A stretch of DNA of 64,000 bases from Candidatus Cloacimonadales bacterium. GTDB lineage: Bacteria > Cloacimonadota > Cloacimonadia > Cloacimonadales > JAFGVF01. Location of the stretch: positions 1,568,001 through 1,632,000 of the forward strand of contig OY782781.1 of NCBI GenBank assembly GCA_963678315.1. Direction: 5' to 3'. The notes beneath the pieces are model-generated. The model saw only the letters and a program-made list of their open reading frames with translations, was not told where the DNA came from and did no database searches. The position numbers and the translations under genes were made by a program. Below are positions 26,780-44,943 of the stretch, piece after piece. The stretch's first letter is position 1. The number at the start of each line of letters is the position of its first letter.

Positions 26780-27514
26780 CTATTTCAAAGCAGTATAAAC
26801 GCTTAACATAAATGATAGAGTTGCTAAAACTGCAGTATAAATGTGCCAAGGAAATTCTCTAGGGGGAGGAATAATAATTGTATCGCCAGCATTGATAATA
26901 AGCTGATCTTCAAACTCACTAATTTCTTCAGAAAACCAGATATCCTCAATATTTACATTGAAGACCTCTCCATCAACTCTAATGATTCTTATAATTGATA
27001 CATCACGGATATTTGTTATTCCTTTTGCTAGTGCAAGGGCGTCAGTAAGTTTCATTGATTCATATATTTGAAAGTCTCCAGGTTGATTCACATAACCTAA
27101 AATACTTATTTTATGTCCATAAATTTTATCTACATAGATAGTTACAACTGGTATCGTTACATAGGGTAAGAGCTTTTTCTCTATTATTTCCCTTAGCTTT
27201 GAAACAGTCATGTTTTCTACCCTAATATTACCAAGTAGGGGATATTCTATTCCTCCATCAGGTAGAACTTTGATACCCTTTTTGGTAAATTCACCGTGCT
27301 CCATTACTATTATAGAAATCTGATCACCTTTTTGTAGTCTATATTGCTCATCTAAAGATACAGAAAGAGAATCATTTGGTTCCAAATCAGTAGATGTAAG
27401 ATTCTTAATAATATCATCTTTAGTTATCATAGGTATTGAATCATCGTAAATATCCTGTCCACTAAGTGAAAACAAGAATCCAAGCATTACAATTAAGATA
27501 AAAAGCTTTTTCAT
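26780..27514 (-). CDS. wza: Polysaccharide export protein (OPX/Wza family, short form)
   Basis: YRLQKGDQISI...VLPDGGIEYPLLG poly-export motif; SLBB ILGYVNQPG...LTDALALAKG; GDTIIIP; C-terminal hydrophobic helix. Confidence 0.88.
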   Translation of the reverse strand: MKKLFILIVMLGFLFSLSGQDIYDDSIPMITKDDIIKNLTSTDLEPNDSLSVSLDEQYRLQKGDQISIIVMEHGEFTKKGIKVLPDGGIEYPLLGNIRVENMTVSKLREIIEKKLLPYVTIPVVTIYVDKIYGHKISILGYVNQPGDFQIYESMKLTDALALAKGITNIRDVSIIRIIRVDGEVFNVNIEDIWFSEEISEFEDQLIINAGDTIIIPPPREFPWHIYTAVLATLSFMLSVYTALK

Positions 27515-28618
27515 TTAATCTCCAACTCTCTTTAAATCTTCTTTAAACTGTTTATAGGTATCAAGGTTAGTATCCCAGTATTTCTTTCCATTTATTCTTC
27601 TTACTACTCCAGGTAAAGTATAGAACTCAATCTTGGCATTCTTCATTGAAGATACTCTTCTTGCTACAGCCATAGCAAATTTAGGGTCGATATTAGTATC
27701 TGCTTCACTTAGAATTTGAGGTCCTACCTTTGATGAAATAAAGAAATCCATAGACTTAAACTTTTTATACAATTCTCTCATAAAGTCCTTTTGTCGTTTT
27801 ATTCTATTGTGTGAACCTGTAGTTACATCAATCTTTCGCATATCTTCTGAAATGTATGTAATATATCTCCAGGAAGTATAGCCATCAATAATGTGTATAC
27901 CTGAGTTAATTCTATACTGTTTAGCAAATTCCTTAGGTATATCTACCTTAATACCCTGCAAATGATCGATAAACTTCATCCAAGATTTCCTGTCATGGGC
28001 GAAATAGTGATTAATATCTAGTGAAGTTAGAGCTTCTACAGATTTTACTAGAGAGCTTGGTCCTCCAATTAGATACATCTCATATAAGGTTCTTAGTTCT
28101 TTGTTAGAATTTGGAATTATGGTATACCAAGGAATGTGTCCTACCTTGATTAACTCCAATTCTGGATAAACAGTTATTAGAATAAAGGTTCTAGGCAATC
28201 CAGCATATACTATGTTAACTTCTTCAATATCTTGCTTGTAGTTCTTTAGTTTTACTTCTGGTTCAGAATAAACTTTAACAGGTTTAGGTTCTTTTTTTGA
28301 TAATGTAGAAGAATAAGGAATACAGTAAGTTTCCCAAGGAGTCAAAAGTTGGTTTATATCAACTTTTTCAAGATTAGCATTTGGAGTAATTCCTTTGGCT
28401 TTTTGAATTAGTTCATAAAGAGTTTCACCTTCAGTTATTGGGTAAACTCCTCTATCAACTACTGCTCCTCCAATTCCGGCATAGATAGTCTTATCTATTA
28501 CAGTGCAAGTTCTGAGAGACAGCAATATAATAATAACTATAGCCACACAAAGAATTATAGAAATAGCAGCACCAATACGTTTACCTTTATCATAGGAATA
28601 GTGATTATTTTTAGTCAT
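27515..28618 (-). CDS. TM-SLBB-LCP (LytR/CpsA/Psr) fusion protein with degenerate LCP motifs
   Basis: IGGAVVDRGVY...LIQKAKG...NL ComEA-like SLBB; LVKSVEALTSLDINHY, FIDHLQGIKVD, RIKRQ, TNI and TLPG of the LCP fold. Confidence 0.75.
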   Translation of the reverse strand: MTKNNHYSYDKGKRIGAAISIILCVAIVIIILLSLRTCTVIDKTIYAGIGGAVVDRGVYPITEGETLYELIQKAKGITPNANLEKVDINQLLTPWETYCIPYSSTLSKKEPKPVKVYSEPEVKLKNYKQDIEEVNIVYAGLPRTFILITVYPELELIKVGHIPWYTIIPNSNKELRTLYEMYLIGGPSSLVKSVEALTSLDINHYFAHDRKSWMKFIDHLQGIKVDIPKEFAKQYRINSGIHIIDGYTSWRYITYISEDMRKIDVTTGSHNRIKRQKDFMRELYKKFKSMDFFISSKVGPQILSEADTNIDPKFAMAVARRVSSMKNAKIEFYTLPGVVRRINGKKYWDTNLDTYKQFKEDLKRVGD

Positions 28619-31388
28619 AATCTATATCATCAGAAAGACCGAACACTTTCTTAATTTTGTTTAAGTACTTCTCAAACTTTGTTGGCTTATGATTTTTACT
28701 GTATGTTGATTCAAATTCATCATCGATTTCTTTATCTCTTTGGGATGACAAACCAACAAACTCGTCTTCATCGTCGTCATCAATATCATTTTGGAAGGTA
28801 AAGTTTTTTAGATAGTTTACTAACTTCATAAACCAGTCCTTACTGACAAAGTGACTTTCTTTTTTCTTTCCACTTTTCTTATGCTTTTTCTTTACTTTTT
28901 CATTATCTTTATAATAGTAATAATATTCGTAACCGTAGTAGTAGTCGTTGTAAGCTGTGTCGAAAATATCATTAGTTACTGAATTTGCAATAAATCCAGC
29001 ATTTCTTATACCTATTACATCAAGCTTTTTCGCCATTCTTCTAATGTTCTTAGTTGTAGTTAGATTCATTTTGGTTGCAGTCAGAACACAATCAAGATGA
29101 CTAAGTAAAATTGATGTTTCAGGGAAATACATAGACGCTGGTGTATCAATTATTACAATATCATAATCTTCTTTTAACTTTTCAAGATATTGAACAAACT
29201 TAGGACTATGGTATAGTTGATTAACACTTGGTGGTTTCTTCCCTGAAGGTAGAACATTCAAGTTTTGAATCCTAGTCTCAACAATAGCTTCTTCAAGATT
29301 TACTTGCTCGGATAGTACTTCTGAGAAACCAACGAGATGAGACATTTTATGGTACCTAGAAACTCTAGGATTATAAAAATCTGCATCAACGAGAAGAACT
29401 CTCTTATTATGCTTGGCTGTGGCTATTGCAAGGAAGTTAGTAATTGTAGATTTACCTTCACCTTTTATTGAGCTAATCACACCAATGATATTTTTTTCTC
29501 TATTTAGAATTAAGTACTTGAAGTTTAATGAAATTTCTTCGAAAACTTTAAGCAGGACATCTTTTTTATCTTCAATTTCTGCCTGATCTTTAGAAGTAAA
29601 AACATTTAAATCTAGTGGAGAGAAGTTAAGTTGTGGTATTGTTCCAATTACAGGAATATTCGGGAAATTATTAATTAACTCTTTTACAGTACGTATTTTG
29701 TTATCTAACATGTTAAGAAGAAGAGCAATACCATAACCAAGACCCAATCCTAGAATTAAACCTATAAGAAGGTTCATCTTTAATTTATTATTAGATGGTT
29801 TTGTTGGTATTTCAGCTTCTTGTAATTGAACTATTCTACTTGCTTCAATATTTTCGCTTAACCTTGTTTGATTTAGTTGAGCTTGAAGATTCAACCTGAT
29901 AACATCAAACGATTTTTTTAAACTCTGTAACTTATTTAACTTAGAAGTATCTTTATCATTTAACTCCATTGAAGCTATAACTTTATCAAGAGCTTTAATC
30001 TTTTGTGTTAATGAAATCTCAGTTGTCTGAGCTTTAATTAAGTCACTAAGTAATTGCTGTTTTAAAGGATTTTGACCAATACTCTTAAATTGTACATTTT
30101 TTTCAGCTCCTTCTTGAATAAGGTGCTCTAAATTAGTAATATTTGTTTTTATTCCTAGAACCTTTGGATGGTTTTCACCATATTTTGTTAAGGCACGTGC
30201 TAGGTCTACTTCAAGATTTAATAATCTCATTTTGAGAGGCTCACTATAAGTTGTCTCCGAAATATAAGAATTATCTTCTTCTTTTATCTTTTTCTCAAGC
30301 TCTGCAATATTGGCTTGTTGAGATTCAAGTTCAACTTTATAAGTTGTTCTCATATCTTTAAATGAATTTAATCTTTTTAGGTTAACTTCAACATTATTAT
30401 CATTGAAATTTTTACCAGCATATAACTTCTTTATTTCAACATCTAAAGAATCAATATCCTTATTCTTTTTGTCTAATTGATCCTCAAGATACATAATTGA
30501 CTTAGCATAACTATCAGTTCTAATAGCTAAATCATATTCATTTAATGCAATAAAATAATTATTTGCAATAGATGCTGCTATATTGGGATTAATATGGTTA
30601 ACATTGATTGTAAGAATATTCTCGACATCGCGTTCAGATGTGCAAGTCATGGAAGCTTTTGCTTGTCCTGGAGTAATAAAGTTGTTCATTAGCTTTGATA
30701 CTCTAGATGAAAGTTCTGACGAATTTATTATTTGAATCCAAGTTTTTAAATCCATCTCTTCTTTGAAATATTGTTTCTGATTTATCAAGTTCATCTCAAT
30801 TAAATTATCTTTAATCAAGATCTGTGTAGAAGAAGTGTATTTTGGAACTTGATACATAGAAAATAAATAAGCTACCAAAATAGCTGTAATTGTGCTCAAT
30901 AAAATCAATAGCTTGTAACGATAAGCTATCTCCAAGTAGTCCATAATATTAACTTCATCTTCAAAGATATTCTTTTTCTGTGCTACATCATTATATTCAT
31001 AACTTGTCTCATTATGATTAGTTAGGTTCTCTGGACTTTTAGTGTTGTGTAGAGTCTTACCAGAGTTATTAATCTCTTTTATTACTTCTTTTTGAGGTAA
31101 CTCAACAGTTGGATTCTTCCCTGGTTTATGATCTATATCTTCTGTATTGCTAGCTTTTGCCCTTTCAGAAGGCGATATTGTTTCTTCTTGCTCTTTTATA
31201 CCTTTAAGTTTTTGGTCATTTTCTTTAAGGTTAGAGTAAGGGGTGCCTATGGAAGCTGTTTCACTAGAATCAACAAAAATAGATCTCTTTTCAGAAATGT
31301 TATTGGCTGACTCTTTATTTAAATCAATTTCAACATTGCTTTTTCTTTTTTTTCTTAGGTCTGATATTGATAATCTTTTTTGTGTCAT
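28611..31388 (-). CDS. wzc: Wzc-type polysaccharide co-polymerase / BY tyrosine autokinase
   Basis: Two TMs flanking coiled coils with YGENHPKV; Walker A GEGKST, A' VDAD, B IDTP; Tyr cluster YNDYYYGYEYYYYY. Confidence 0.92.
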   Translation of the reverse strand: MTQKRLSISDLRKKRKSNVEIDLNKESANNISEKRSIFVDSSETASIGTPYSNLKENDQKLKGIKEQEETISPSERAKASNTEDIDHKPGKNPTVELPQKEVIKEINNSGKTLHNTKSPENLTNHNETSYEYNDVAQKKNIFEDEVNIMDYLEIAYRYKLLILLSTITAILVAYLFSMYQVPKYTSSTQILIKDNLIEMNLINQKQYFKEEMDLKTWIQIINSSELSSRVSKLMNNFITPGQAKASMTCTSERDVENILTINVNHINPNIAASIANNYFIALNEYDLAIRTDSYAKSIMYLEDQLDKKNKDIDSLDVEIKKLYAGKNFNDNNVEVNLKRLNSFKDMRTTYKVELESQQANIAELEKKIKEEDNSYISETTYSEPLKMRLLNLEVDLARALTKYGENHPKVLGIKTNITNLEHLIQEGAEKNVQFKSIGQNPLKQQLLSDLIKAQTTEISLTQKIKALDKVIASMELNDKDTSKLNKLQSLKKSFDVIRLNLQAQLNQTRLSENIEASRIVQLQEAEIPTKPSNNKLKMNLLIGLILGLGLGYGIALLLNMLDNKIRTVKELINNFPNIPVIGTIPQLNFSPLDLNVFTSKDQAEIEDKKDVLLKVFEEISLNFKYLILNREKNIIGVISSIKGEGKSTITNFLAIATAKHNKRVLLVDADFYNPRVSRYHKMSHLVGFSEVLSEQVNLEEAIVETRIQNLNVLPSGKKPPSVNQLYHSPKFVQYLEKLKEDYDIVIIDTPASMYFPETSILLSHLDCVLTATKMNLTTTKNIRRMAKKLDVIGIRNAGFIANSVTNDIFDTAYNDYYYGYEYYYYYKDNEKVKKKHKKSGKKKESHFVSKDWFMKLVNYLKNFTFQNDIDDDDEDEFVGLSSQRDKEIDDEFESTYSKNHKPTKFEKYLNKIKKVFGLSDDIDYD

Positions 31389-32227
31389 TAAATATAGCTA
31401 CCGTTATTCTCTAAATCTTGAAATATTATTTCCATTAGTTCATTATCAATAATCTTGATCTCTTCTGTAGAAGCAATATCCATCGCTATTTTACAAGCTC
31501 TGTTGATTTCTCTTGGAATACCATGTGTTTTTCTATTTATAAGCTTACTTGCTTCTTCAGTGAATATCTCATCTTTCGCACCAGCAATTTTTAGTCTATG
31601 TTTAATATAATCTATTGTGTCAGTTTCGGACATATTTGTTAAATGATATCTCATACCAATTCTTTGGTCAACTTGAGGTAATTTCTTAACATTATTCATT
31701 AAAGAAGGTTGACCTATCAATATTATAATTATTGGGCAAGAAAAACCTATTGTGATGTTAGTTAAATCCTTTATATAATCCAAATCTTTACTGGCAATTT
31801 TCTGAGCTTCATCAAATAATAGATAAAGGCTATTCTTATTACTAACTATATTGTTCTCTAAGAACTTTTTTAGCTTTAATTCCAGATAATAACGTTTTGA
31901 TGGCAATGATTCAGGATCTTGTCCAGTTATTTGCCATAGGACTTCTGTAAGAATCTCACTATAATTATAGGTTGTAGAATTTATGTTAACGATAAAGTTA
32001 TTAGGATGTTTTCTTCTTAGTTCCTCAATTAAAACTAGTTTGGATATGGTTTTTCCTGTACCAACTTCTCCGCTTAGCATACCCATTTGCATAGAACCAG
32101 ATTCTGTAACGTATTTTAAGCGTTCTAGAGCTTCCAAATGGTCAGAACTTTTATAATAGAATTGAGGGTCATTATTGTCTTGGAAGGGGGGTAATTTCAA
32201 CCCCCAAAAAGAAAAATAATCTATCAT
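31388..32227 (-). CDS. ExeA/GspA-family AAA ATPase (no C-terminal PG-binding domain)
   Basis: FWGLK.PPF....DP.FYY.S..H.EAL; GEVGTGKT; FDEAQ; LIGQP; QRI; THGIPREINRAC. Confidence 0.9.
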   Translation of the reverse strand: MIDYFSFWGLKLPPFQDNNDPQFYYKSSDHLEALERLKYVTESGSMQMGMLSGEVGTGKTISKLVLIEELRRKHPNNFIVNINSTTYNYSEILTEVLWQITGQDPESLPSKRYYLELKLKKFLENNIVSNKNSLYLLFDEAQKIASKDLDYIKDLTNITIGFSCPIIIILIGQPSLMNNVKKLPQVDQRIGMRYHLTNMSETDTIDYIKHRLKIAGAKDEIFTEEASKLINRKTHGIPREINRACKIAMDIASTEEIKIIDNELMEIIFQDLENNGSYI

Positions 32228-32919
32228 TAGCTATCCTTTTTTTTGCTGAGTTTAATTTCTACTCTTCTATTTTTTTCTCTATTAGCTGGTGAATCGTTAG
32301 GGACAAGAGGTTTGAATTCACCATAGCCCATTATTTGTAATTGGTCAGGAGTAAAATAACTATTTCTTAAAAAGAATTTAACTATACTCAAAGCTCTTGC
32401 AGTTGATAATTCCCAGTTAGATGGATATTTTGAATTAGCAATTGGGATATTATCTGTGTGCCCTTCAATCCTTATGCTCCAATCTCCACCATCTGAAACA
32501 GTTTGTTCTATTGATTGGGCAATTTTTAACAGTGGTTTATGTGAATTCCATCTAAGTTCTGCTTTACCACTTTCAAATAGGATTTCTCCTGGAACAGAAA
32601 TAACTCTTTCATTTAAATCAGATATTGCTGAATATTCAGTTGAATCAACAGCTACTTGATTTTCAGCAATGACTTTTTGTTGAGCTTCTGATATTGTTTT
32701 CCATCCCAACTCACTATCTCTAACCAAATAGAAGAACACAAAGAAAATCAGTAGCAGAGTCATCAAGTCTGAATAGGGTACTAAGCTTGTATAGAAACCA
32801 GAAAAATCATTTTCTGGAGATTCTTCAAACAAGGCACTCATTGATGATATATCTGACCTATCTTCTTTTAAAATCTTCTGTACTTGATTATGAGTTGTAG
32901 ACTCTTTATTATTAAGCAT
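32227..32919 (-). CDS. motB: Stator subunit MotB/PomB-like (TM plus OmpA-like PG-binding domain)
   Basis: LVPYSDLMTLLLIFF with the ion-binding Asp; LFESGKA; IEGHTDNIPI; SNWELSTARA; NRRVEI. Confidence 0.92.
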   Translation of the reverse strand: MLNNKESTTHNQVQKILKEDRSDISSMSALFEESPENDFSGFYTSLVPYSDLMTLLLIFFVFFYLVRDSELGWKTISEAQQKVIAENQVAVDSTEYSAISDLNERVISVPGEILFESGKAELRWNSHKPLLKIAQSIEQTVSDGGDWSIRIEGHTDNIPIANSKYPSNWELSTARALSIVKFFLRNSYFTPDQLQIMGYGEFKPLVPNDSPANREKNRRVEIKLSKKKDS

Positions 32920-33658: not shown

Positions 33659-35044
33659 TTAATTTAAATTTAGTATGTATCTAATCTGATTTACTGATTG
33701 ATTGATAATAAGATTCTTTGTCTCTTCATTAAAATCGTCCAGCATTTCTATGTCCTCTTTCATAATCATAATAGCTCTTTCTGAGAGCTGAGAATAGAAC
33801 TTGTTCCTAATGTTATCAGGCACACACTTTAAGAATCTTACCATGTCTAAATGAGTGAACTCACTGTTAATTTGTTCCAGCTGTACATTCTTTAACTTAA
33901 GAATATCATCAATTAAGAATATTTTCTTTGAAAGCTGTTGACTAAAGTCACTATCAAAGAACTGGATTGACTTAAATATTTCGTTAGCTACGTCTGGAGA
34001 AGAATTATTAATAAACTTAGCCATTGTATTAAGTTTATTAATTTTATAGGGATCTTTTTCCATAGCTTCTAAATATTTCTGATACATATTTACAACTAGA
34101 ATTTTCATATCTAATTTAAGCACATTGTCTAAGTTTATGAGGGCTTTTAACACAGCGTTTTTATCACCAGTGTAATGTCTAAAGAAACTATCAAATTTAT
34201 CAGCATCAAGTTGACTTAAAATGATAGCGATCTCATTAGGATTCTCATCTTTTAAAATATTTATGAAGTTATCATTAGATAGCTCATTTAAAAAGGCAAA
34301 ACTAGTTGGACTGTCTTCCTCATCATCTTTTAGAAGTTGAACTTTTACAGGTCTATTGCCCAAGTTATTTGTATGGTTATTATTAGACTCAGAAGAAGAA
34401 CTTTGTGATAATGGAATGGATTGCATTCCGCTAACCTGATCAATATTAGTAACTTTAACTTTTCTCATTGATTTAGCAATGATTCTGAATCCACTTTTTA
34501 GATTATTAACAATTACGAAGAAAGCTAAAGCGAGTAAGGCAATAATTGAAATATTCTTTACGTTAAAGAATGAGTTGCTTTCAGACTTTATATTAAGATC
34601 TTTCTCAATATTAATTACATCACCTTCAAGCTCATTAATATAAGCAATATTTCTTACAATTTCAGAAATTTCTTCAATAACAGAATCATCAGTGTCTTGT
34701 GCAACACGAACTGTTACTCTTTTGCCAGTAACATCTGTTGGAGATAAATCAGTAAGATCAAGAGTTGGTATTTTGTCTTCAGTCTTTGCGACTGGTAGTC
34801 CAGGTAAGCTAGTTTGCTTATCTAGTGTCATTTGATCGCTATTGGGATCATAAAAGTTATAACTTAAATCAATATCAACATAGACTATACAATCTTTTAT
34901 AATTGGTTTCAAAGATGCGTTAATTCTTTCTGATAGTTCGTTTTCTAATCTTAGCTCAGCTAAAGAATTAGAGCCAATTCCAAATAAAAGTCCTGAAAAG
35001 CAAAGAATAAAAATGATAAGTAAAAATCTAATAACAATCTTCAT
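33659..35044 (-). CDS. FliF-like (ring-building domain plus TM) / FliG (middle and C-terminal) fusion protein
   Basis: FliF_C-like RVTVRV...IEEISEIVRNIAYINELEGDVINI; TM ISIIALLALAFFVIV; FliG_M-like FAFL...ENPNEIAIILSQL; FliG_C-like KKIFLIDDILKL...LKC...LSERAIMIMKEDIE. Confidence 0.8.
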   Translation of the reverse strand: MKIVIRFLLIIFILCFSGLLFGIGSNSLAELRLENELSERINASLKPIIKDCIVYVDIDLSYNFYDPNSDQMTLDKQTSLPGLPVAKTEDKIPTLDLTDLSPTDVTGKRVTVRVAQDTDDSVIEEISEIVRNIAYINELEGDVINIEKDLNIKSESNSFFNVKNISIIALLALAFFVIVNNLKSGFRIIAKSMRKVKVTNIDQVSGMQSIPLSQSSSSESNNNHTNNLGNRPVKVQLLKDDEEDSPTSFAFLNELSNDNFINILKDENPNEIAIILSQLDADKFDSFFRHYTGDKNAVLKALINLDNVLKLDMKILVVNMYQKYLEAMEKDPYKINKLNTMAKFINNSSPDVANEIFKSIQFFDSDFSQQLSKKIFLIDDILKLKNVQLEQINSEFTHLDMVRFLKCVPDNIRNKFYSQLSERAIMIMKEDIEMLDDFNEETKNLIINQSVNQIRYILNLN

Positions 35045-35168
35045 TACTACCTCTTATAGTTAATTGATATCAAGTGTAGTTTTTAGGCAAGAAAAAAATC
35101 AGTTTTTTTTTTGTTTGACTAAAATACCCAAAGTGCAAATATTAATTATCAAACTACGGAGATATCAG

Positions 35169-38100
35169 ATGAAATGTATTTTTAGTCGAACTACGATAAC
35201 GTTACTATTGATAATATTATTTAACTATTCAAATTTACTCAGTGAAAAAAAATATGATTTTAGTGAATGGAATGGTAATGTAGATATCATTGGAGAGAGT
35301 TCTTTTGATCAGTTTGGAGAAGATCTTGTTCATGGTGATGTGAATGGTGATGGTATAAACGATATTATATGTTCAAGTCCTTCAGCTGATCCTTCAGGTA
35401 GAAACTCTGCAGGTATTGTTTATATTTTTTATGGCGAGACAATTCTAGAACAAGAAACAACTATATCACTTGAAAGCAATAATGCCGATGTTACTATATA
35501 TGGGGCTGTAGCAGGACAAAAATGTGGTTCAAGCTTGGCTTGCGGCACAGTTAATAGTGACCTTTTTGATGATGTAGTAATTGGAGCTCCTTTTGCTAGT
35601 ACTAATGATCTTGAACAAAATGGTCTAGTATACATTATTAATGGTTCGAATAATTTACCAACAATTATAGATTTAGCTTCTGCTACTGGAATTGATAAAA
35701 TTAATGGTAGTACTAGTAATGATTTTTTAGGAAGTGATATCACTGTTGCGAATTTGAATAGCGATAATTTAGATGAAGTTATTATTAGTGCACCCAATGC
35801 AGATTCAGATAATACACAAAACTGTGGTAAGGTATATATCTTATGGTCTAATGAAAGCTACTCACAGAATCTTGATTTAGCTTCTGCTAATAATGTTACA
35901 TATTTTGTTGGTAACCATATCAATGAAAACTTAGGTTATAAGATTGCTTGCGGTAATATTAATAACGACTCTTTCTGTGATTTGTTCATTGGCGCTCCGG
36001 GTTTTGATGATGATAGTCTGTTAAATAATGGAAGGTTATTCCTTATAAAAGGTCGAGGTTTCTTTCCTTTTGGGCAAGTTGATATTACAAATGAAACTTA
36101 TGTAAATGCAACAATTGAAGGAACTAATCAAGCATCTGTAATTGGAAAAGCTTTTACAGTAGATGACTTCAATAATGATGGGAATGGAGATTTACTTCTC
36201 ACAGATCAAAGTAGTCAATTAGATTCAAACTTAATATACCTAATTTTAGGTAATAATAGCCTAACAGGTACCATTCTAGCAAACAGTGAAAACTCTAATT
36301 CATTAATTTCAGGAGAAGGTTTAGACAATACATTTGGTCAGTATCTTTACTCTGGAGATGTAAATAATGATTCTATATATGATATGATTATTTCCTCTCC
36401 TGAAGCAGAAACTACTAATGGTAATTCCTCTGGAATAGTCCATGTTATTTATGGTAATAGCCTTATTAATACTGCTTATGATGTTAATCTAGGTGATAGT
36501 GATGAAGTTTATCTTGGAAGCACAACACAGTCATTAACAGGTACTTCTATTTCTCTATGTGATTTTAATAATGATTCTAAAAATGATATTTGGATTGGTT
36601 CTCCAGGTAGTGGAAATAACAATGGTGAGATTAATAGTGTTTATGGTGGTATCCCATGGCTATATAATAGAAATCCTAATGAAGAAGCTACAGATGTAGA
36701 TATTGATAGTCCTGTATCTTTCTCATTGGCAGATGATAATCAGATTAATATTTCTTCTATCTCAGTTGTTATAGCTGGTACAGAATACAACTCTAATAGC
36801 AATAACTTCTCTTATAGTGGTTCGGAAGAAAATTACAGAATTACTGTAGCTCCTGAAGATTTTTACGGATATAACCAGATAATTGACGTATCAGTCAATG
36901 CTGAAGATGATGATGGCTGGCAGATACCTGAATCAAATTATAGATTTTTTACTAGAGAAGATACTGATCCTCCATTTACTGATTTATGGATTCCAGCTCC
37001 AGATGCAGTTGGCGTTGCTGTAGATACCAACATTGAATTCCATATTTATGATTTAGGGGATGGGGTCGACTTATCATCAATCACTGTTAATATTCAAGGT
37101 GAAAACTATTATTCAGGTCATCCTAATTTCTCAGCTCTGGGAGAGGCAAATGATTACACAATAGTAATTAATCCCCCTCAAAACTTTAGTTTTGGGGAAT
37201 TAGTTAATGTTACTATTGATGCTACAGATTTAGCTGAAGTCCCTAATGCCATGACTTCTTTCGAATACTCATTTACTTGCGGACAAGATAATTCTGCTCC
37301 TTCAATAATCTTAATAGAACCAGCTTATAATGAAGAAGTATCTAGAGTTAATCCTGTAATAATAGAGGTTAGAGATGATGAAACTGAGTTAAATCTTTCT
37401 TCAGCTGAATTAAAGCTTGATGATGTAAGTATATTAGCTTCATCACAGATAACCAATATAACAAATGGATATAGATTTTATTATTCAGCACTTGATAACG
37501 GTATACATTCATTCGGAAATCATGAAATTGAATTTTATATTGAAGATAGCTCTTCCAATGCAGTTGATACTCTATCAGTTTTTTCTGTGATACCAGATAA
37601 TGAAGCTCCTTTTACTCAGAATCACTATCCTGATAAGTTTTCTACCGAGAACGCAACAAATACCAGTTTTATGGTGGAAATATTTGATTTTCTTAGTGGA
37701 GTAGATATTAATACTGTCTCAATTAGATTGAATAGCCAAGAGATTATGAGTTCTCCATTCACAACTATTACAGATGTTGCTGATGGTTATAGAATTCTTT
37801 ACAGTCCTGATGAAAGGTTTCAAGGAGAAGTTTCAGTAGAAATTGATGCAGGTGATCTTGATATACCAGCCAACAACATGCCAACAGAAGTCTATACTTT
37901 TGAATGTACAAGTGATACTGAAGCCCCTTACATAGAAAATGTTGATCCTGAAGTCGGCGAGATTAACGTTAGTCCTGATACTAATGTACAATTTAGAATA
38001 AAAGATGATAAAACTGGGGTTGATATTTCAACCTTATCAGTTAAAGTTAATAATATTGTTGTAACTGATAATGTAACGACAGCTCTAGTTACATCTGGTT

Positions 38101-39833
38101 TTGATGTGCTTTATATTCCATCTGAAATATTTGATTTCAATGAATGGGTTGAAGTAGAAATTGCATGTTATGACAAAGCTCTTGTTCCTAATTTGTTTAC
38201 AACTGATTATAGCTTTAGAATAACTCCAGATCTTATTCCACCTGAACTAGTAAATCTATCCCCCGAAGCCAATGAAACAGGAGTTCCTATCTCTGAAAAT
38301 ATATATTTTGAAATTACTGATAATGGACTTGGTGTTGATATCAACAGCTTATCAATGAGAGTAAATGGGGTTCAAGTTAATCCAGATTATGAAGAAATTA
38401 ATGATACAAATAATTATGCTGTAACCTATGAACACCAAGATTTTGATTATTCAGAAGAAGTGACTGTTGTAGTATCTGTGTCAGATCTTGCAGCGTCTCC
38501 GAATAGTTTAATTAATTATAACTATATGTTCCAAACAGTAGATGATGATAATGTTGAACCATTTTTTACTGCCTTTAATCCAACACCTGATGCTATAGAG
38601 GTGCCTGTTGAGACTTCAATCTCTATGGAAATCCTAGATGCTGATTCAGGCATAGATGAAACTTCAATTATATTTAAAATTAATAATGAAACAATTGAAA
38701 GTTACCAGCTAACACCGATTGATAGTGATGAGGGAACAGGTTTTCAACTTCTTTATGAACCTAATGAAGAGTTTAATTACAATGAGACTGTTCATGTTCA
38801 GATTTATGCAATGGATTCTTCTAGTAATAACAATAGTAATAGTATGAATTATTCTTTTACTACTTTAGTTGATGACGATCCTCCATATCTTAGCTTTTCA
38901 TATCCTGAATCTGGAGGTAATGGTTATGCTAATTCTTTAGTGTATCTTAATTTTAATGATGACTTATCTGGGGTAGATAAGACTAGTTTTAATTTGAAAA
39001 TTAATGATTCTTTTGTGACAACTTATACAGATTCTTTAGATGGAAATGCTTTTGAGGTTTGGTACGAAACAGAAGATAACTACACTTCAGATATTGTTGA
39101 AGTAGAATATTACATATCTGACAAGGTGGGTAATACTTTAAACGAATCCTTTGAATTTAACATTATAGAGGATATATATCCTCCATATTTTGTGCAAATT
39201 GGATCCTTTGCAGATAATCAAGATGAAATAGTAAATAAACTAAAAATAGCTATTCTTGATAAGGGGGTTGGCATTAATAAAGAGAGTATTCAGTTCGAAG
39301 TTAATAATCAAAGTGTAGAAAACTATTCGCTAGATGAACATATTTATGATTCAAACCCTGACTCATTAGGTTATGTGCTGACTTATAATGTTAATGAAAA
39401 TAATTATGATGGTCAAAAACTTAAAGTTAATATTTATGCAGAAGATGAAAACAATCCTATTCCTCTTTCTGGTGAAGCTCAACTAAGTTTCTATATATGG
39501 CGTGAGCTAAATTCAGATAAAGTAGAGATTGTTCCAAATATTTTGAGCCTAAATAATGATGGATATAACGATGAATGCAGAATAATCATTCCATCCAATA
39601 AAAATGCTGTGTGTAAAATATTCACAATGGAAGGTAAAGAGATCAAAGACTTGGATATTATGCCTTATAGCTATGAAGATAGTCCTGATTTATCAAAAGG
39701 TGTGCAAGATTACCAAGTTGCCATCTGGGATGGTAGAAACAAAGACAATAAGATTGTCAATGCCGGAATTTACTTTTGCCAAGTCGAAGTAAATGGTAAG
39801 AAACACTTAAACACAATAACAATAGCAAAGTAG
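35169..39833 (+). CDS. Large surface adhesin: 7 FG-GAP blades, about 9 Ig-like repeats, T9SS type-B (CHU_C)/FlgD-like C-terminal domain
   Basis: GDVNGDGINDI-type Ca-binding loops x7; D..(A/P)P linkers and D..GVD..S about every 105 aa; VPNILSLNNDGYND...WDG...GIYF...ITIAK. Start ATG 35169 behind GGAG. Confidence 0.85.
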   Translation: MKCIFSRTTITLLLIILFNYSNLLSEKKYDFSEWNGNVDIIGESSFDQFGEDLVHGDVNGDGINDIICSSPSADPSGRNSAGIVYIFYGETILEQETTISLESNNADVTIYGAVAGQKCGSSLACGTVNSDLFDDVVIGAPFASTNDLEQNGLVYIINGSNNLPTIIDLASATGIDKINGSTSNDFLGSDITVANLNSDNLDEVIISAPNADSDNTQNCGKVYILWSNESYSQNLDLASANNVTYFVGNHINENLGYKIACGNINNDSFCDLFIGAPGFDDDSLLNNGRLFLIKGRGFFPFGQVDITNETYVNATIEGTNQASVIGKAFTVDDFNNDGNGDLLLTDQSSQLDSNLIYLILGNNSLTGTILANSENSNSLISGEGLDNTFGQYLYSGDVNNDSIYDMIISSPEAETTNGNSSGIVHVIYGNSLINTAYDVNLGDSDEVYLGSTTQSLTGTSISLCDFNNDSKNDIWIGSPGSGNNNGEINSVYGGIPWLYNRNPNEEATDVDIDSPVSFSLADDNQINISSISVVIAGTEYNSNSNNFSYSGSEENYRITVAPEDFYGYNQIIDVSVNAEDDDGWQIPESNYRFFTREDTDPPFTDLWIPAPDAVGVAVDTNIEFHIYDLGDGVDLSSITVNIQGENYYSGHPNFSALGEANDYTIVINPPQNFSFGELVNVTIDATDLAEVPNAMTSFEYSFTCGQDNSAPSIILIEPAYNEEVSRVNPVIIEVRDDETELNLSSAELKLDDVSILASSQITNITNGYRFYYSALDNGIHSFGNHEIEFYIEDSSSNAVDTLSVFSVIPDNEAPFTQNHYPDKFSTENATNTSFMVEIFDFLSGVDINTVSIRLNSQEIMSSPFTTITDVADGYRILYSPDERFQGEVSVEIDAGDLDIPANNMPTEVYTFECTSDTEAPYIENVDPEVGEINVSPDTNVQFRIKDDKTGVDISTLSVKVNNIVVTDNVTTALVTSGFDVLYIPSEIFDFNEWVEVEIACYDKALVPNLFTTDYSFRITPDLIPPELVNLSPEANETGVPISENIYFEITDNGLGVDINSLSMRVNGVQVNPDYEEINDTNNYAVTYEHQDFDYSEEVTVVVSVSDLAASPNSLINYNYMFQTVDDDNVEPFFTAFNPTPDAIEVPVETSISMEILDADSGIDETSIIFKINNETIESYQLTPIDSDEGTGFQLLYEPNEEFNYNETVHVQIYAMDSSSNNNSNSMNYSFTTLVDDDPPYLSFSYPESGGNGYANSLVYLNFNDDLSGVDKTSFNLKINDSFVTTYTDSLDGNAFEVWYETEDNYTSDIVEVEYYISDKVGNTLNESFEFNIIEDIYPPYFVQIGSFADNQDEIVNKLKIAILDKGVGINKESIQFEVNNQSVENYSLDEHIYDSNPDSLGYVLTYNVNENNYDGQKLKVNIYAEDENNPIPLSGEAQLSFYIWRELNSDKVEIVPNILSLNNDGYNDECRIIIPSNKNAVCKIFTMEGKEIKDLDIMPYSYEDSPDLSKGVQDYQVAIWDGRNKDNKIVNAGIYFCQVEVNGKKHLNTITIAK

Positions 39834-39839
39834 GTTAAC

Positions 39840-41315
39840 ATGAAAAATACAAATATAAAAATTACAGTCTTTCTTGTTTTATTACTTTGCACATTAGATT
39901 TATATTCTTTCAATTTCTTCAAGGGTGGACTTAGGAATTATAGTTTAGCTGGAACAGGTGTAGCCTCAACTAATGATGTATCTGCTAGTGGCTACAATCC
40001 TTCTTTGCTTAATTTGAATAGAGATTTTTCCATACTAACAGACTCAAGAGTCTATTTCTATGATCTTGAGAATGATGATTTAAGCTTTAATTATTTTGCT
40101 TTAGGAGTACCTCTCGGACGTTATGGCTCTTTAGCTTTATCAGGGGATATTTTCAATGCTAATCTTTATGATGAAAATAGATATGGATTACATTGGGGAT
40201 ACTCATTAACAGATGATTTTGGTATAGGTACCAGCATCAATTATTACTCTATATCTTATGGAGGAAATGAGTATACCCAGAATGACCCATTCTTTGTTGA
40301 TAATAATACTGATAAGGCAGCTCTTGATCTAGATTTTGGATTATATTATAATCTTAGTCAGCAATGGAGACTAGGACTCTCATCGAAAAATATACTTCAA
40401 TCTGATCTAGCGATTGATAGTAGTAATGAAGAACAGTTAAATAGAGAAATCTTAATTGGTAATAATTATCAATATAGAAAATTTAATTTTATGCTTGATC
40501 TTGGTCTTATTCAGAATGCTGTAACAGAAGAAAACGAACTAAATTATGCTTTAGCTAGTGAATATAAATTATACGATAATCTTGCTATTAGAACTGGTAT
40601 TAACAATAATGATCTAACTTTTGGGTTTGGCTTTGAGATTATCGACAAAGAATATGTTTCTTCTTACAGATCTTCATATAACTCAAAAAAAATGATTGAG
40701 ACTAAAAGTGTTGTTTTCTCTGTAGATTATGCTTTCTCTTATCCTTTGTTGAGTGATCTTGCTATTCCATACGGAAATCACTTTGTAGGTTTAAGCTTTA
40801 AATTTGGTAACTCACAATCTAGTGAAGATGAACTTAAAAAACATGTTTCTCCTGTAGTGGAAGAGGCAATCGTTGAGATTCCTGTCAAAGCATCTTTAGA
40901 TAATTCTAAACCGCATGTCTTAGTTGATACAGTTTATGTAGATAAGATTATTAGAGATACTATTGTTGTAGTTGATACAATTGAGGTTATTACAGGAGTA
41001 CCTGAGAGTGAGTATCAGAAGAAAATTCAGGAGCTTAATGCTGCATACACTAAAATCAAAACTTATAAAACTAATAATCAAGCTCTGATACACATAACTA
41101 ATGCAACGAAATACTATTATAGCAGTGATTTTGAGAAGGCTATTGATGAGTGTAATAAAGCTATAAGGCTTGCTCCAGATATGGCACTTGCTTATATAAA
41201 ACTCGGTTCGATATATTATAGGCAAGGAAAAGCAGACTTAGCAATGAAGAATTGGAAAATTGCTAAAAGACTAGACCCTAAAAACCCTGAACTTGAAGGT
41301 CTTTTTGATGATTAA
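39840..41315 (+). CDS. PorV/PorP-SprF-like outer-membrane barrel with C-terminal stalk and TPR domain
   Basis: RNYSLAGTGVASTNDVSASGYNPSLL N-terminal motif; DLDFGL, IRTG, VDYAF strands; TPR AIDECNKAIRLAPD..LAYIKLG. Confidence 0.7.
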   Translation: MKNTNIKITVFLVLLLCTLDLYSFNFFKGGLRNYSLAGTGVASTNDVSASGYNPSLLNLNRDFSILTDSRVYFYDLENDDLSFNYFALGVPLGRYGSLALSGDIFNANLYDENRYGLHWGYSLTDDFGIGTSINYYSISYGGNEYTQNDPFFVDNNTDKAALDLDFGLYYNLSQQWRLGLSSKNILQSDLAIDSSNEEQLNREILIGNNYQYRKFNFMLDLGLIQNAVTEENELNYALASEYKLYDNLAIRTGINNNDLTFGFGFEIIDKEYVSSYRSSYNSKKMIETKSVVFSVDYAFSYPLLSDLAIPYGNHFVGLSFKFGNSQSSEDELKKHVSPVVEEAIVEIPVKASLDNSKPHVLVDTVYVDKIIRDTIVVVDTIEVITGVPESEYQKKIQELNAAYTKIKTYKTNNQALIHITNATKYYYSSDFEKAIDECNKAIRLAPDMALAYIKLGSIYYRQGKADLAMKNWKIAKRLDPKNPELEGLFDD

Positions 41316-41811: not shown

Positions 41812-42186
41812 TTAAATATTGGTGTTTAACGAAATATTAAGAGCTTCAATTAAATCTACTTTTGAGATTGGTTTCGTTAAGTAATGATCACAACCTGCAT
41901 CGTATGCTGCTCTTTTTTCTTCAGGGTAAGCATATGCTGTTAAGGCTATTATAGGTTTTTCGAAGCCAAAATCTCTTATCTTTCTTGTAGCACTTAGACC
42001 ATCCATTAAAGGCATCTTGATATCCATTAGTACAAGATCAATATTATTTCCTTCTTTAGTTATTTTTTTTACAGCAGCTTCCCCATTAACCTCATTAATT
42101 AAATTAAAGTCCTCTTTTAAATATGCTTTAACTAATATATAGTTATCTATTTGATCTTCTACTACTAATATTGTCTTTTTATGCAT
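41812..42186 (-). CDS. Single-domain response regulator (CheY-like receiver)
   Basis: LVVED, LMDIKMP.MDG, IIALTA, KP. Start moved to ATG 42186 behind AAGGAG. Confidence 0.9.
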   Translation of the reverse strand: MHKKTILVVEDQIDNYILVKAYLKEDFNLINEVNGEAAVKKITKEGNNIDLVLMDIKMPLMDGLSATRKIRDFGFEKPIIALTAYAYPEEKRAAYDAGCDHYLTKPISKVDLIEALNISLNTNI

Positions 42187-44929: not shown

Positions 44930-44943
44930 AATAACTCCCTTAA

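Follow-up and report, generated by a model that had tools for sequence, protein, structure and literature searches.

To our knowledge, the flagellum is the only machine in which FliG couples a rotor to a stator. A gene of a Candidatus Cloacimonadales bacterium, found in a 64,000-nt stretch of contig OY782781.1 (the window, meaning the whole of that stretch), encodes in one chain a periplasmic FliF RBM3-type domain, a membrane helix and a cytoplasmic FliG_M/C part that keeps the charged torque helix. Is such a protein a relic of a flagellum, a component of another envelope system or the rotor of a machine of its own? By analyzing the window, its relatives and the genomes of the phylum, we conclude that the product of the fusion gene is probably the rotor in a rotor-stator machine independent of the flagellum.

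Results

Layout and conservation of the fusion gene

The open reading frame of the fusion proved real and lies on the minus strand, the plus-strand reading of the region being riddled with stop codons. The domain order given in a preliminary description of this DNA, namely a hydrophobic N-terminus, a periplasmic domain, a transmembrane helix and, past a Ser/Asn linker, FliG_M followed by FliG_C, was borne out (Table 1). The hydrophobic stretches of the protein are residues 1–24, a segment that ends in small residues among homologues (HA/D, YA/N), and residues 162–185. In the predicted structure, residues ~25–160 follow the fold order α-β-β-α-β and contain an insert of ~40 residues (62–103), which holds the motif SLPGLP, with P81 and P84 present in 30/30 family members. 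A190, K191, R194 and K197 are invariant among 12 close homologues, and the sequence of the Ser/Asn linker is variable in the family alignments. The frame was unbroken in 52 of the 53 fusion matches, the remaining one carrying a single TAG, and motifs of the fusion are invariant across proteins of only ~20–48% identity.

Table 1. Features of the fusion gene and of its neighbors in the window.
Feature	Position	Strand	Evidence and remarks
FliF-FliG fusion ORF	33659..35044	minus	ATG start, 461 aa
Residues 1–24, hydrophobic N-terminal segment (signal peptide or first TM)	34973..35044	minus	Sequence; helix 2–20 in model
Residues 25–160, periplasmic FliF RBM3-like ring-building domain	34565..34972	minus	Models, Foldseek and VIA
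Residues 161–196, transmembrane helix and basic juxtamembrane helix (IIAKSMRKVKV)	34457..34564	minus	Helix 162–196 in model
Residues 197–243, Ser/Asn-rich linker, predicted disordered	34316..34456	minus	pLDDT <50 over 183–248
Residues 244–461 and stop codon, FliG_M and FliG_C with torque helix (R423, E430, D431)	33659..34315	minus	Pfam, NCBIfam, PDB profile, hhalign
MotA-type stator A subunit, 245 aa	32912..33649	minus	9 bases downstream of fusion gene; Pfam MotA_ExbB 77 bits
MotB-type stator B subunit, 230 aa, plug/TM and OmpA-like peptidoglycan-binding domain	32227..32919	minus	Overlaps motA by 8 bases
ExeA-like / PEP-CTERM-system-type AAA ATPase, 279 aa	31388..32227	minus	TIGR03015 137 bits (cut-off 324), Pfam AAA_22; start overlaps motB stop
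Wzc-like chain-length determinant and tyrosine autokinase, 925 aa	28611..31388	minus	Pfam Wzz, GNVR, AAA_31; TIGR01007 110 bits, over cut-off
LytR/CpsA/Psr-family protein with SLBB domain, 367 aa	27515..28618	minus	Pfam LytR_cpsA_psr 59 bits
Wza-like polysaccharide export protein, 244 aa	26780..27514	minus	Pfam Poly_export 67 bits, SLBB_2
Giant surface protein, 1589 aa as listed	35064..39833	plus	FG-GAP, Ig-like repeats, CHU_C-like (T9SS type B) C-terminus; divergent from fusion gene
Outer-membrane protein, 491 aa	39840..41315	plus	PorV/PorQ/PorP-like barrel (~32–297) and C-terminal TPR (~400–485)

The periplasmic domain resembles FliF RBM3 in fold

The RBM3-like nature proposed for the N-terminal domain was upheld by two structure searches. 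The best 17 matches of Foldseek were all FliF S-ring or RBM3 structures (E = 9e-6 to 1.2e-4), and the S-ring structures of a Vibrio FliF-FliG fusion, 8z4d and 8z4g, were among the best fold matches. VIA, which compared the domain with 48,161 chains independently of Foldseek, matched Salmonella FliF (6scn_A) with a Z of 13.7, superposing the domain on chain residues 233–438 with an rmsd of 2.6 Å over 95 residues; Vibrio FliF scored 13.6 and 12.0, SpoIIIAG 9.3 and PrgK 9.1, and BON/DolP- and OsmC-like folds were listed at Z 7–8. An RBM3 domain with an insert between two membrane segments is thus present as in FliF, the insert being modelled with low confidence (pLDDT 37–55) and counting ~40 residues versus ~110 for the FliF collar. 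At the sequence level the homology to FliF is weak, and the FliF assignment therefore rests on the fold searches: hhalign of the domain against E. coli FliF 372–426 gave an E of ~0.009 and a probability of 4–5%, the Pfam YscJ_FliF_C matches in the relatives P0047 and L073 (E = 0.007 and 0.002) stayed below the cut-off, and no FliF was found at E up to 1 with a profile of 12 homologues against the PDB sequences. Searching with the N-terminal part as query gave 37 matches, and the Pfam scan covered those other than P0003, P0013, P0014, P0038, P0039, P0042, P0043, P0045 and P0046; the long matches P0028 and P0034 are Ig/cadherin repeat proteins hit through many short stretches and were treated as unrelated.

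In FliF, RBM1 and RBM2 (the SctJ-homology region, Pfam YscJ_FliF) house the export gate, and the rings comprise ~33–34 subunits. The absence of RBM1 and RBM2 from the present protein, as described previously, agrees with a periplasmic region of ~136 residues that forms a single domain and with the genome-wide absence of PF01514 matches. The self-assembling ring that had been proposed is partly backed by modelling: modelled in four copies, the N-domain reached 0.45 versus 0.00 for the best of three controls, with a run agreement of at least 46% of contacts and a partner pLDDT of at least 63, while a closed ring goes beyond what four copies can demonstrate. In calibration, the mark for this score was reached by 20/30 solved pairs and 1/23 single chains, under a set-up unlike that of the four-copy run, which used a custom alignment. 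The pass may also stem from the model's memory of solved FliF rings.

The C-terminal half is a FliG that keeps most torque charges

Pfam FliG_C matched the C-terminal half with 41 bits (cut-off 23.3), confirming its identity as FliG. An MgtE or generic ARM-repeat reading was rejected, as MgtE_N scored 23 bits, under its cut-off and under FliG_C, and MgtE chains appeared in Foldseek only at E 0.07–0.12 versus 4e-7 for FliG. Searching the PDB sequences with a profile returned 12 FliG entries, the best match being residues 114–320 of Aquifex FliG (E = 1.2e-19); the only other match was a kinase (E = 0.1), with MgtE absent from the list. Hhalign aligned the half to residues 110–297 of E. coli FliG with a probability of 92%. 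The fliG model TIGR00207 matched with 64.3 bits over positions 107–298 of 338, missing its equivalog cut-off of 226.7, and Pfam FliG_M reached 20.9 bits, below its cut-off of 25, though the FliG_M fold region aligns in both TIGR00207 and the PDB profile. FliG_N is indeed lacking, with no Pfam FliG_N match and no match to TIGR00207 positions 1–106; the TM helix and the disordered linker occupy its place.

The charged stator-contact positions had been described as kept. Based on hhalign, the positions named there are kept and make up four of the five E. coli torque positions (K264 = K406, R281 = R423, D288 = E430 and D289 = D431); the fifth, R297, is N439. Among 30 diverse family members, R423 is found in 29, position 430 is acidic in 29 and position 431 in all 30; the K264 equivalent is found in only 12 and the R297 equivalent in none. 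Erosion of the FliM-binding motif was verified, EHPQ reading ENPN at residues 267–270 and its columns retaining E in 22, H in 1, P in 15 and Q in 1 of the 30 members, and the MFxF hinge reads IFLI at residues 375–378. In a phylogenetic tree, for which P0009, P0023, P0025 and P0037 of the 30 members had been thinned out, the six canonical FliGs included formed a clan separate from the 26 fusions (support 100/98); the root of this tree is arbitrary and conveys no direction of descent. A Deltaproteobacteria locus (L014), matched only over residues 209–435 through an ORF of 347 aa, was set aside as probably an ordinary FliG.

A dedicated MotA/MotB stator accompanies the fusion gene

The best NCBIfam models for the MotA-type neighbor were MotP/PomA (134–139 bits), whose equivalog cut-offs of 341–394 were not reached. 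Among 14 family MotAs, the equivalents of E. coli MotA P173 and P222 are conserved in all 14, and that of R90 is R/K in 12. E98 of E. coli MotA is the partner of FliG R281, and its column is acidic in 0/14 family MotAs, in a loop whose alignment is unreliable. The MotB-type protein matched Pfam OmpA (62.9 bits) and MotB_plug (26.4 bits), both above cut-off, and its D51 aligns to D32, the essential TM aspartate of E. coli MotB. MotA adjoins the fusion gene in 11/11 copies from 10 distant loci, where MotB was detected in 9/10 loci by BLAST and 10/10 by clustering, and the order rotor-MotA-MotB was likewise found in 7/7 close loci. Even in a branch of ~20% identity, ORFs of MotA and MotB size follow the fusion gene in 3/3 flanked metagenome loci; the Pfam check of this branch scanned one locus, L073, and confirmed both subunits.

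A giant surface protein and an outer-membrane barrel are linked to the module

The giant protein encoded divergently from the fusion gene matched Pfam FG-GAP (103 bits), Big_5 (39 bits) and CHU_C (20.7 bits, not reaching the cut-off of 27), and its true start is likely an internal Met ahead of the signal-like MKCIFSRTTITLLLIILF. In distant loci, full-length homologues of it (26% identity, E = 8e-106) are neighbors of FliFG-MotAB. The barrel protein that follows matched NCBIfam PorV_fam with 44 bits (cut-off 90) as well as Pfam TPR_11 and TPR_2, and its orthologue in locus L029 matched PorP_SprF with 22.3 bits, at the cut-off. The giant and barrel-TPR genes were co-located with the module in 7/7 close and 5/10 distant loci, one further distant locus having the barrel only, at a contig end; in three loci, with four copies of the module, a BamD/YfiO-like TPR protein replaces the pair.

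In the ~20%-identity branch, an ORF of ~1550 aa follows MotB in 3/3 flanked loci; the two loci scanned with Pfam, L073 and L075, both had FG-GAP, Big_5 and CHU_C, the last above cut-off (32 and 31 bits). The barrel follows the giant gene in both distant-branch loci examined, and in L073, the locus in which BLAST homology to both the giant and the barrel protein of the window was found, the barrel homologue has 27% identity (E = 6e-20). The link of the rotor to the giant and barrel proteins hence persists at ~20% rotor identity. The dedicated MotA/MotB and the link to the giant and PorV-like proteins, which the preliminary description did not contain, carry most of the functional inference.

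The fusion is distributed independently of flagellar genes

The genome of the window (Cloacimonadales, 2.99 Mb, 97.9% complete) was searched for FliF (PF01514), FlhA, flagellin and FliM/FliN_C, and none was found, in keeping with the earlier view that the protein works with neither a C-ring switch nor a type III secretion gate. Across the 232 genomes of the phylum Cloacimonadota, the fusion family occurs in 47 and FlhA in 24; 44 of the 47 carriers are without FlhA and three have both, including genome G119, which encodes a complete canonical FliG and FlhA alongside the fusion. The phylum is described as mostly non-flagellated, with some flagellated members, in the accessible part of the source (bioRxiv 10.1101/2021.10.08.463351).

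Discussion

A proposed rotor-stator machine

We propose that, by way of its RBM3 domain, the fusion protein would assemble as a ring in the inner membrane, under which a FliG_MC ring would lie, and that MotAB units anchored to peptidoglycan would be driven by ion flow to push against the torque helix in the manner of the flagellar motor. The covalent link between the two parts would make both FliG_N and the C-terminal peptide of FliF dispensable, and with FliM/FliN missing and the FliM-binding motif degenerate, the machine would have no known chemotactic switch; ring formation, rotation and unidirectionality are what we infer here. More speculatively, the output would be something other than a filament: given that the conserved partners are a PorV/PorP-like barrel with a periplasmic TPR domain and a giant surface protein, the motor would probably move, load or tension this adhesin across the envelope, in a role comparable to that of GldLM toward SprB/SprF in Flavobacterium. 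An RBM3 ring alone cannot span the periplasm, which leaves the coupling to the outer-membrane partners unexplained. We put forward only tentatively the fuller picture of a new surface machine, in which a rotary FliF-RBM3/FliG ring with MotAB might drive or tension a giant integrin-like adhesin via the PorV-like barrel-TPR protein, for gliding or adhesin propulsion convergent with GldLM-SprB, by a module that, compared with the phylum's canonical FliG, is old and that is present in several phyla.

Alternative explanations

The same components might instead form a stator-coupled transducer of force or signal with no rotating ring, a few copies docking on MotAB via the torque helix and relaying a PMF-dependent change to the periplasmic domain and the TPR partner, much as TonB, TolA and GldM take work from 5:2 motors. 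Such a reading would suit partners that are all envelope proteins with TPR domains, a collar insert far shorter than that of FliF, the lack of rod or export components for a ring to house, and the occurrence of RBM folds also in small or non-ring assemblies, such as the lower-ranking VIA matches to BON/DolP- and OsmC-like proteins. Nevertheless we consider it rather unlikely, as the top fold is the ring-forming RBM3 of FliF, 4 Z units over the next family, the lateral homo-oligomer model beat its controls, FliG_MC normally functions as a ring, and known partners of the TonB/TolA/GldM type bind their motors on the B-subunit side rather than at the face of MotA that lies in the cytoplasm. The neighborhood of the window in turn brings up polysaccharide export, the motor energizing or gating exopolysaccharide secretion in this lineage: gene ends overlap or abut all the way from the fusion gene to the Wza-like gene, which points to translational coupling, synteny of the set extends to 7/7 close loci (the Wzc-like gene matched in 5/7), and in L033, from another family of the phylum, the fusion gene likewise has LytR/CpsA/Psr and Wza-like genes upstream. 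This is improbable, however: the export genes are missing from 9/10 distant loci and from the ORFs called in three flanked metagenome loci (Pfam covering eight ORFs of L073 and four of L075), where the triad, often with the giant-barrel pair, persists without them; the association therefore looks lineage-specific. The ExeA-like ATPase gene is adjacent only in the window's own family (7/7 close and 0/10 distant loci). The partner set as a whole is uneven across loci, with the BamD/YfiO-like TPR protein in some and the Wzc/Wza set in the window's own family.

The type-B-like signal of the surface protein, CHU_C-like as in T9SS cargo, raises the further idea that the module stands in for GldLM/PorLM as the inner-membrane motor missing from the T9SS of this phylum. 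SprA is present in 212/232 genomes of the phylum, and PorU (574 bits) is found in the window's genome, as are at least 45 ORFs with a match to the region of the C-terminal sorting domain of PorU. In 0/232 genomes did GldM_1st score at its cut-off, and the GldL and GldM NCBIfam models were blank in the window's genome, in searches that had no positive control (0/14 control genomes matched); a search for GldK in turn yielded only generic FGE-sulfatase-domain matches (≤90 bits against a cut-off of 350). Against this, the fusion is found in only 47/232 genomes and in 0/98 of family f3, where 93/98 have SprA, so it cannot be a general T9SS motor, and we regard the idea as highly improbable. We give almost no credence to a decaying, functionless remnant of a lost flagellum: such remnants might be expected where most members are non-flagellated and some keep flagella, but the frames are nearly always intact, the motifs invariant and the own stator always present, the fusion coexists with complete canonical FliG and FlhA in G119, and its FliG part lies outside the canonical clan. 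The mostly FlhA-free carriers likewise point to a separate machine rather than a decaying one, three of the 47 also having FlhA.

Comparison with known systems

With the flagellar motor's core, the proposed rotor-stator machine has in common the RBM3 fold, FliG_M/C with the R281/D288/D289 equivalents, the P173/P222/R90 positions of MotA, and MotB with D32, plug and OmpA-like domain. It differs in that FliF and FliG, separate chains in the flagellum, are here one polypeptide, which lacks RBM1/RBM2, FliG_N and the FliF C-terminal peptide, has a collar of ~40 instead of ~110 residues, a degenerate EHPQ motif and no R297, and which is partnered by a barrel-TPR protein of the outer membrane and a giant protein resembling adhesins. 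SpoIIIAG and SctJ/PrgK have an RBM fold too, and in SpoIIIAG an insert likewise separates strands one and two, but they score clearly under FliF RBM3 in VIA and have neither a FliG fusion nor a stator partner. In Flavobacterium, SprB is paired with SprF, and GldLM drives SprB/SprF. The GldLM/PorLM-SprB-SprF system of Bacteroidota is similar in being an ion-driven inner-membrane motor tied to a giant adhesin with a type-B-like CTD and a neighboring PorP/PorV-like barrel, a likeness for which the window's own CHU_C and PorV scores lie below the curated cut-offs. There is no homology between the fusion and GldM, nor between MotA and GldL at the family level, and unlike in GldLM the effector would here be engaged at the cytoplasmic face through FliG.

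Natural FliF-FliG fusions, which the preliminary description mentioned, do exist, in Chlamydiaceae (PMC4768692). According to the accessible part of that source, the chlamydial protein combines a truncated FliF, made up of a signal sequence, a periplasmic region of RBM type and the second TM, with a FliG-like part in hosts thought to be non-flagellated; it has ~330 aa, with an RBM2-like and a second RBM-like domain and a cytoplasmic part that is FliG_M-like only, and its proposed partner is the injectisome protein SctQ (PMC4768692). By this description, the present protein is set apart by its single RBM3-like domain, its FliG_M plus FliG_C with torque helix and its dedicated MotAB. Engineered Salmonella and Vibrio FliF-FliG fusions indicate, in the portions available, that a covalent chain can assemble rings (PMC11481574, PMC6079021); as described there, they are full-length laboratory constructs keeping RBM1–3 and FliG_N, while the present gene is natural. 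The literature searched, which did not extend to bioRxiv supplements or subscription journals, describes the engineered fusions and the shorter one of Chlamydia only, and not the present module.

Implications

A fused ring-building and torque-receiving protein beside its own stator and a giant surface protein suggests an undescribed motor made from flagellar parts in a bacterium without flagella. If this is true, a stand-alone FliF-RBM3/FliG chain with MotAB would be a second use of the FliG torque interface and a natural minimal rotor, consisting of one protein without switch, export gate or rod. It would make testable which are the fewest parts for ring assembly and torque generation, which loads other than a filament a flagellar-type motor can work on, and whether the flagellar motor's core has existed, or is able to exist, separately from the type III export apparatus, with the link to a T9SS-type giant adhesin offering a concrete output for testing. 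As the module appears old beside the phylum's canonical FliG and several phyla have it, a minimal rotor-stator state may have been preserved in it, which would bear on the origin of the flagellar motor.

A modelled FliF RBM3-type domain and a FliG-like half share one chain

The fusion gene is read on the minus strand, the plus strand of the same interval being full of stops, and its homologues are named at source either 'hypothetical protein' or 'flagellar motor switch protein FliG'. The layout of the chain, its residue equivalences to E. coli FliG, and the neighbouring features are collected in the table.

Coordinates of the fusion protein and of associated features, with residues matched to E. 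coli FliG by hhalign
Feature	Position	Description
Fusion gene	33659..35044 (-)	461-aa ORF
Hydrophobic N-terminal segment	residues 1-24	
Periplasmic domain	after residue 24	~136 residues
Insert of the N-terminal domain	residues 62-103	
Long membrane helix	residues 162-196	structure model
Linker	up to ~243	Ser/Asn-rich, predicted disordered
C-terminal half		all-helical (model)
E. coli FliG EHPQ	267-270	ENPN, eroded
E. coli FliG MFxF	375-378	IFLI, partly kept
E. coli FliG K264	K406	kept
E. coli FliG R281	R423	kept
E. coli FliG D288	E430	kept as acidic
E. coli FliG D289	D431	kept
E. coli FliG R297	N439	lost
Giant surface protein gene	35064..39833 (+)	1589 aa
Barrel-TPR gene	39840..41315 (+)	491 aa
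Polysaccharide-type gene set	26780-32227 (-)	
922-aa ORF	23987-26755	no Pfam family
Regulatory genes	41812-48180 (-)	
Tandem second-type modules (L031)	G144:C42, 9086-17572	
Second FliG_C match (L060/L065)	G119:C1:3190590-3191247	174-aa ORF

The N-terminal domain, with secondary structure alpha-beta-[insert]-beta-alpha-beta, is, by its modelled fold, a FliF RBM3-type ring-building motif. Using the domain modelled alone from 15 sequences (pLDDT 72), the 17 best Foldseek matches were all FliF S-ring/RBM3 structures of Salmonella or Vibrio (E 9e-6 to 1.2e-4), followed by PrgK (1.7e-3) and SpoIIIAG (0.029). VIA, a fold search independent of Foldseek, was run over 48,161 chains and gave Z 13.7 with FliF 6scn_A (rmsd 2.6 Å over 95 residues, chain 233-438), Z 13.6 and 12.0 with Vibrio FliF, 9.3 with SpoIIIAG and 9.1 with PrgK. 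Both searches support the RBM3-like domain proposed in the preliminary description. The link at sequence level is weak: hhalign aligned the domain to E. coli FliF 372-426 or 396-443 (E ~0.009, probability 4-5%), and two distant relatives matched Pfam YscJ_FliF_C (E 0.007 and 0.002). The insert, only ~40 residues long, occupies the site of the FliF beta-collar and carries SLPGLP, the most conserved motif of the family, whose P81 and P84 are present in all 30 diverse members.

When four copies of the domain were modelled with our own alignment, the oligomer score was 0.45 (runs 0.47, 0.45 and 0.36) versus 0.00 for the best of three controls, with contact agreement of at least 46% and partner pLDDT of at least 63. 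The mark was reached by 20/30 solved pairs and 1/23 single chains in a calibration that the four-copy job does not resemble. Because FliF rings are already solved and likeness to solved complexes can yield a pass, this result makes FliF-like lateral packing plausible and does not demonstrate a ring.

Sequence matches identify the C-terminal half as FliG_M followed by FliG_C. Pfam FliG_C scored 41 bits (cut-off 23.3), and MgtE_N (23 bits) and FliG_M (21 bits) each fell below their own cut-offs. The NCBIfam fliG model TIGR00207 aligned residues 244-435 with model positions 107-298 of 338; its score of 64 bits falls far short of the 226.7 set as equivalog cut-off. A profile of 12 homologues against PDB sequences (E up to 1) gave 13 distinct matches, of which 12 were FliG, the best being Aquifex FliG residues 114-320 (E 1.2e-19); the remaining one was a kinase (E 0.1) and none was MgtE. 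An MgtE identity, considered as a competing assignment for this half, was therefore rejected in favour of FliG.

The torque-residue charges and the altered ENPN and IFLI motifs pointed out earlier proved correct and valid across the family, since they were recovered by hhalign to E. coli FliG (probability 92%) and in the aligned set of 30 diverse members. R423 is kept in 29, and the E430 and D431 columns are acidic in 29 and 30, respectively; K406 is kept in 12, and no Arg occurs in the R297-equivalent column. The EHPQ-equivalent columns retain E in 22, H in 1, P in 15 and Q in 1.

The fusion gene is coupled to MotA/MotB in a conserved module

The MotA gene (245 aa) lies 9 bases downstream of the fusion gene and overlaps the following MotB gene (230 aa) by 8 bases. 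The best NCBIfam models for this MotA were MotP/PomA (134-139 bits, below their cut-offs). Among 14 family MotAs, equivalents of E. coli P173 and P222 are kept in all and R90 is R/K in 12, while the E98 column, in a poorly aligning loop, is acidic in none. MotB has a plug/TM match, an OmpA-like domain and D51 as the equivalent of E. coli D32.

All seven close Cloacimonadales loci have the fusion followed by MotA, MotB, an ExeA-like ATPase, an LCP protein and a Wza-like exporter, with the giant surface protein and barrel-TPR genes divergently upstream; a Wzc-like gene was matched in five. Over 10 distant loci of the phylum (rotor identity 22-31%), the fusion adjoins MotA in 11/11 copies, and MotB was found in 9/10 by BLAST and 10/10 by clustering. 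Giant protein, barrel-TPR, fusion, MotA and MotB all lie on one strand in five of these loci, and a barrel was seen at the contig end in a sixth. Four copies in three loci have instead a ~375-aa BamD/YfiO-like TPR protein after MotB. This second type of module occurs twice in tandem in L031, as fusion, MotA, MotB and TPR protein without giant protein or barrel, and also in L035 and L036; some genomes hold both types, with two matches each in G144, G150, G152, G188 and G191.

In a distant metagenome branch, the three flanked loci L073-L075 show, in order, a 498-533-aa rotor ORF, MotA-size and MotB-size ORFs and a ~1550-aa ORF; a Pfam scan for MotA and MotB, made on L073 alone, confirmed both there. 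FG-GAP, Big_5 and CHU_C (31-32 bits, above cut-off) were confirmed by Pfam in the giant proteins of L073 and L075, and that of L073 is homologous full-length to the window's (26% identity, E 8e-106). The ORF that follows, examined in L073 and L074, bears a signal and is barrel-like in both, the L073 barrel being homologous to the window's (27% identity, E 6e-20). The window barrel, with C-terminal TPR repeats, scored 44 bits with PorV_fam (cut-off 90), and an orthologue reaches PorP_SprF at cut-off.

Just past the barrel-TPR gene lie a 144-aa response regulator and two large PAS-domain histidine kinases, one hybrid; they were not seen next to the module at any other locus, and a regulatory link is therefore unsupported.

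The fusion occurs mostly in genomes without flagella

The close relatives are Candidatus Cloacimonadales MAGs. The window's genome (a single contig of 2.99 Mb with 97.9% completeness) matches FliG_C only once, in the fusion gene, and searches there found no YscJ_FliF, flagellin N domain or FliM/N C domain and no FlhA above noise; the controls were positive in flagellated model genomes. With the N-terminal 215 residues as query, 37 proteins were found among 1.84 billion representatives. Of the 28 scanned with Pfam, 24 were 425-507 aa with FliG_C and two were unrelated repeat proteins; P0033 and P0036 (195-196 aa) match the N-terminal domain and TM part only, have no Pfam family, and may be split forms, truncated gene calls or contig ends. 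ESM Atlas leads include look-alike clusters with FliG_C, FliG_M and YscJ_FliF_C, commonest in Elusimicrobiota, and longer FliG_C-bearing clusters, commonest in Bdellovibrionota.

Across the phylum, 47/232 genomes (31/151 high-quality; 18/66 genera) matched the N-domain profile, none of them among the 98 of family f3. FlhA occurs in 24/232 genomes and coincides with the fusion in three (G118, G119 and G121), G119 encoding a canonical FliG besides. In a tree of FliG_MC regions, thinly sampled and arbitrarily rooted, 26 fusions stand apart from a clan (support 100/98) of six canonical FliGs, one from E. coli and five from Cloacimonadota. The fusion is a separate paralogue where flagella exist. 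Directly after the canonical fliG of the flagellated G119, a further ORF matches FliG_C at 75 bits and may represent either a paralogue reduced to FliG_C or an artefact of gene calling.

Possible output of the proposed rotor

Natural FliF-FliG fusions, mentioned in the preliminary description, have a precedent in Chlamydiaceae, for which Bergeron 2016 (PMC4768692) describes a ~330-aa FliF fused to a FliG_M-like part; engineered fusions are noted for Salmonella and Vibrio. The available text of a 2025 MotAB phylogeny (PMC12505986) separates flagellar from generic stators and mentions no such rotor, and no description of a FliF-RBM3/FliG plus MotAB module was found in searchable full-text literature, a scope outside which subscription journals and preprint supplements lie.

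The motor might serve polysaccharide export, which fits the window's own operon: the motor genes continue, with ends overlapping or abutting, into an ExeA-like ATPase, a Wzc-like co-polymerase/tyrosine kinase, an LCP-SLBB protein and a Wza-like exporter. However, this adjacency is lineage-specific, polysaccharide genes being present in only 1/10 distant loci (L033). The window's set resembles PEP-CTERM-type exopolysaccharide loci, and the 922-aa ORF comes next after the Wza-like gene. The module could alternatively be a general T9SS motor. The window's genome encodes PorU, and at least 45 of its ORFs match the C-terminal sorting-domain region of PorU; GldK searches there gave generic FGE-domain matches only, and GldL and GldM models gave no match, although none of their positive controls gave one either, so absence is not established. 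The GldM_1st cut-off was reached in 0/232 genomes, likewise with no positive control for GldM. Cloacimonadota have either a very divergent PorKLMN motor and ring or a T9SS that is energised differently. Nevertheless, a general T9SS-motor role is unlikely: the T9SS translocon SprA is found in 212/232 genomes, and family f3, which lacks the fusion, has it in 93/98.

In genomes mostly without flagella, one polypeptide combines FliF-RBM3 with FliG_MC, has a conserved torque helix and is genetically locked to flagellar-type MotAB. We infer that the fusion would form an inner-membrane rotor ring, with no known switch, driven by peptidoglycan-anchored stators. More speculatively, and by analogy with GldLM and SprB/SprF, the output of this rotor may be the conserved outer-membrane barrel-TPR protein and the giant FG-GAP/Ig adhesin with its T9SS-type signal.
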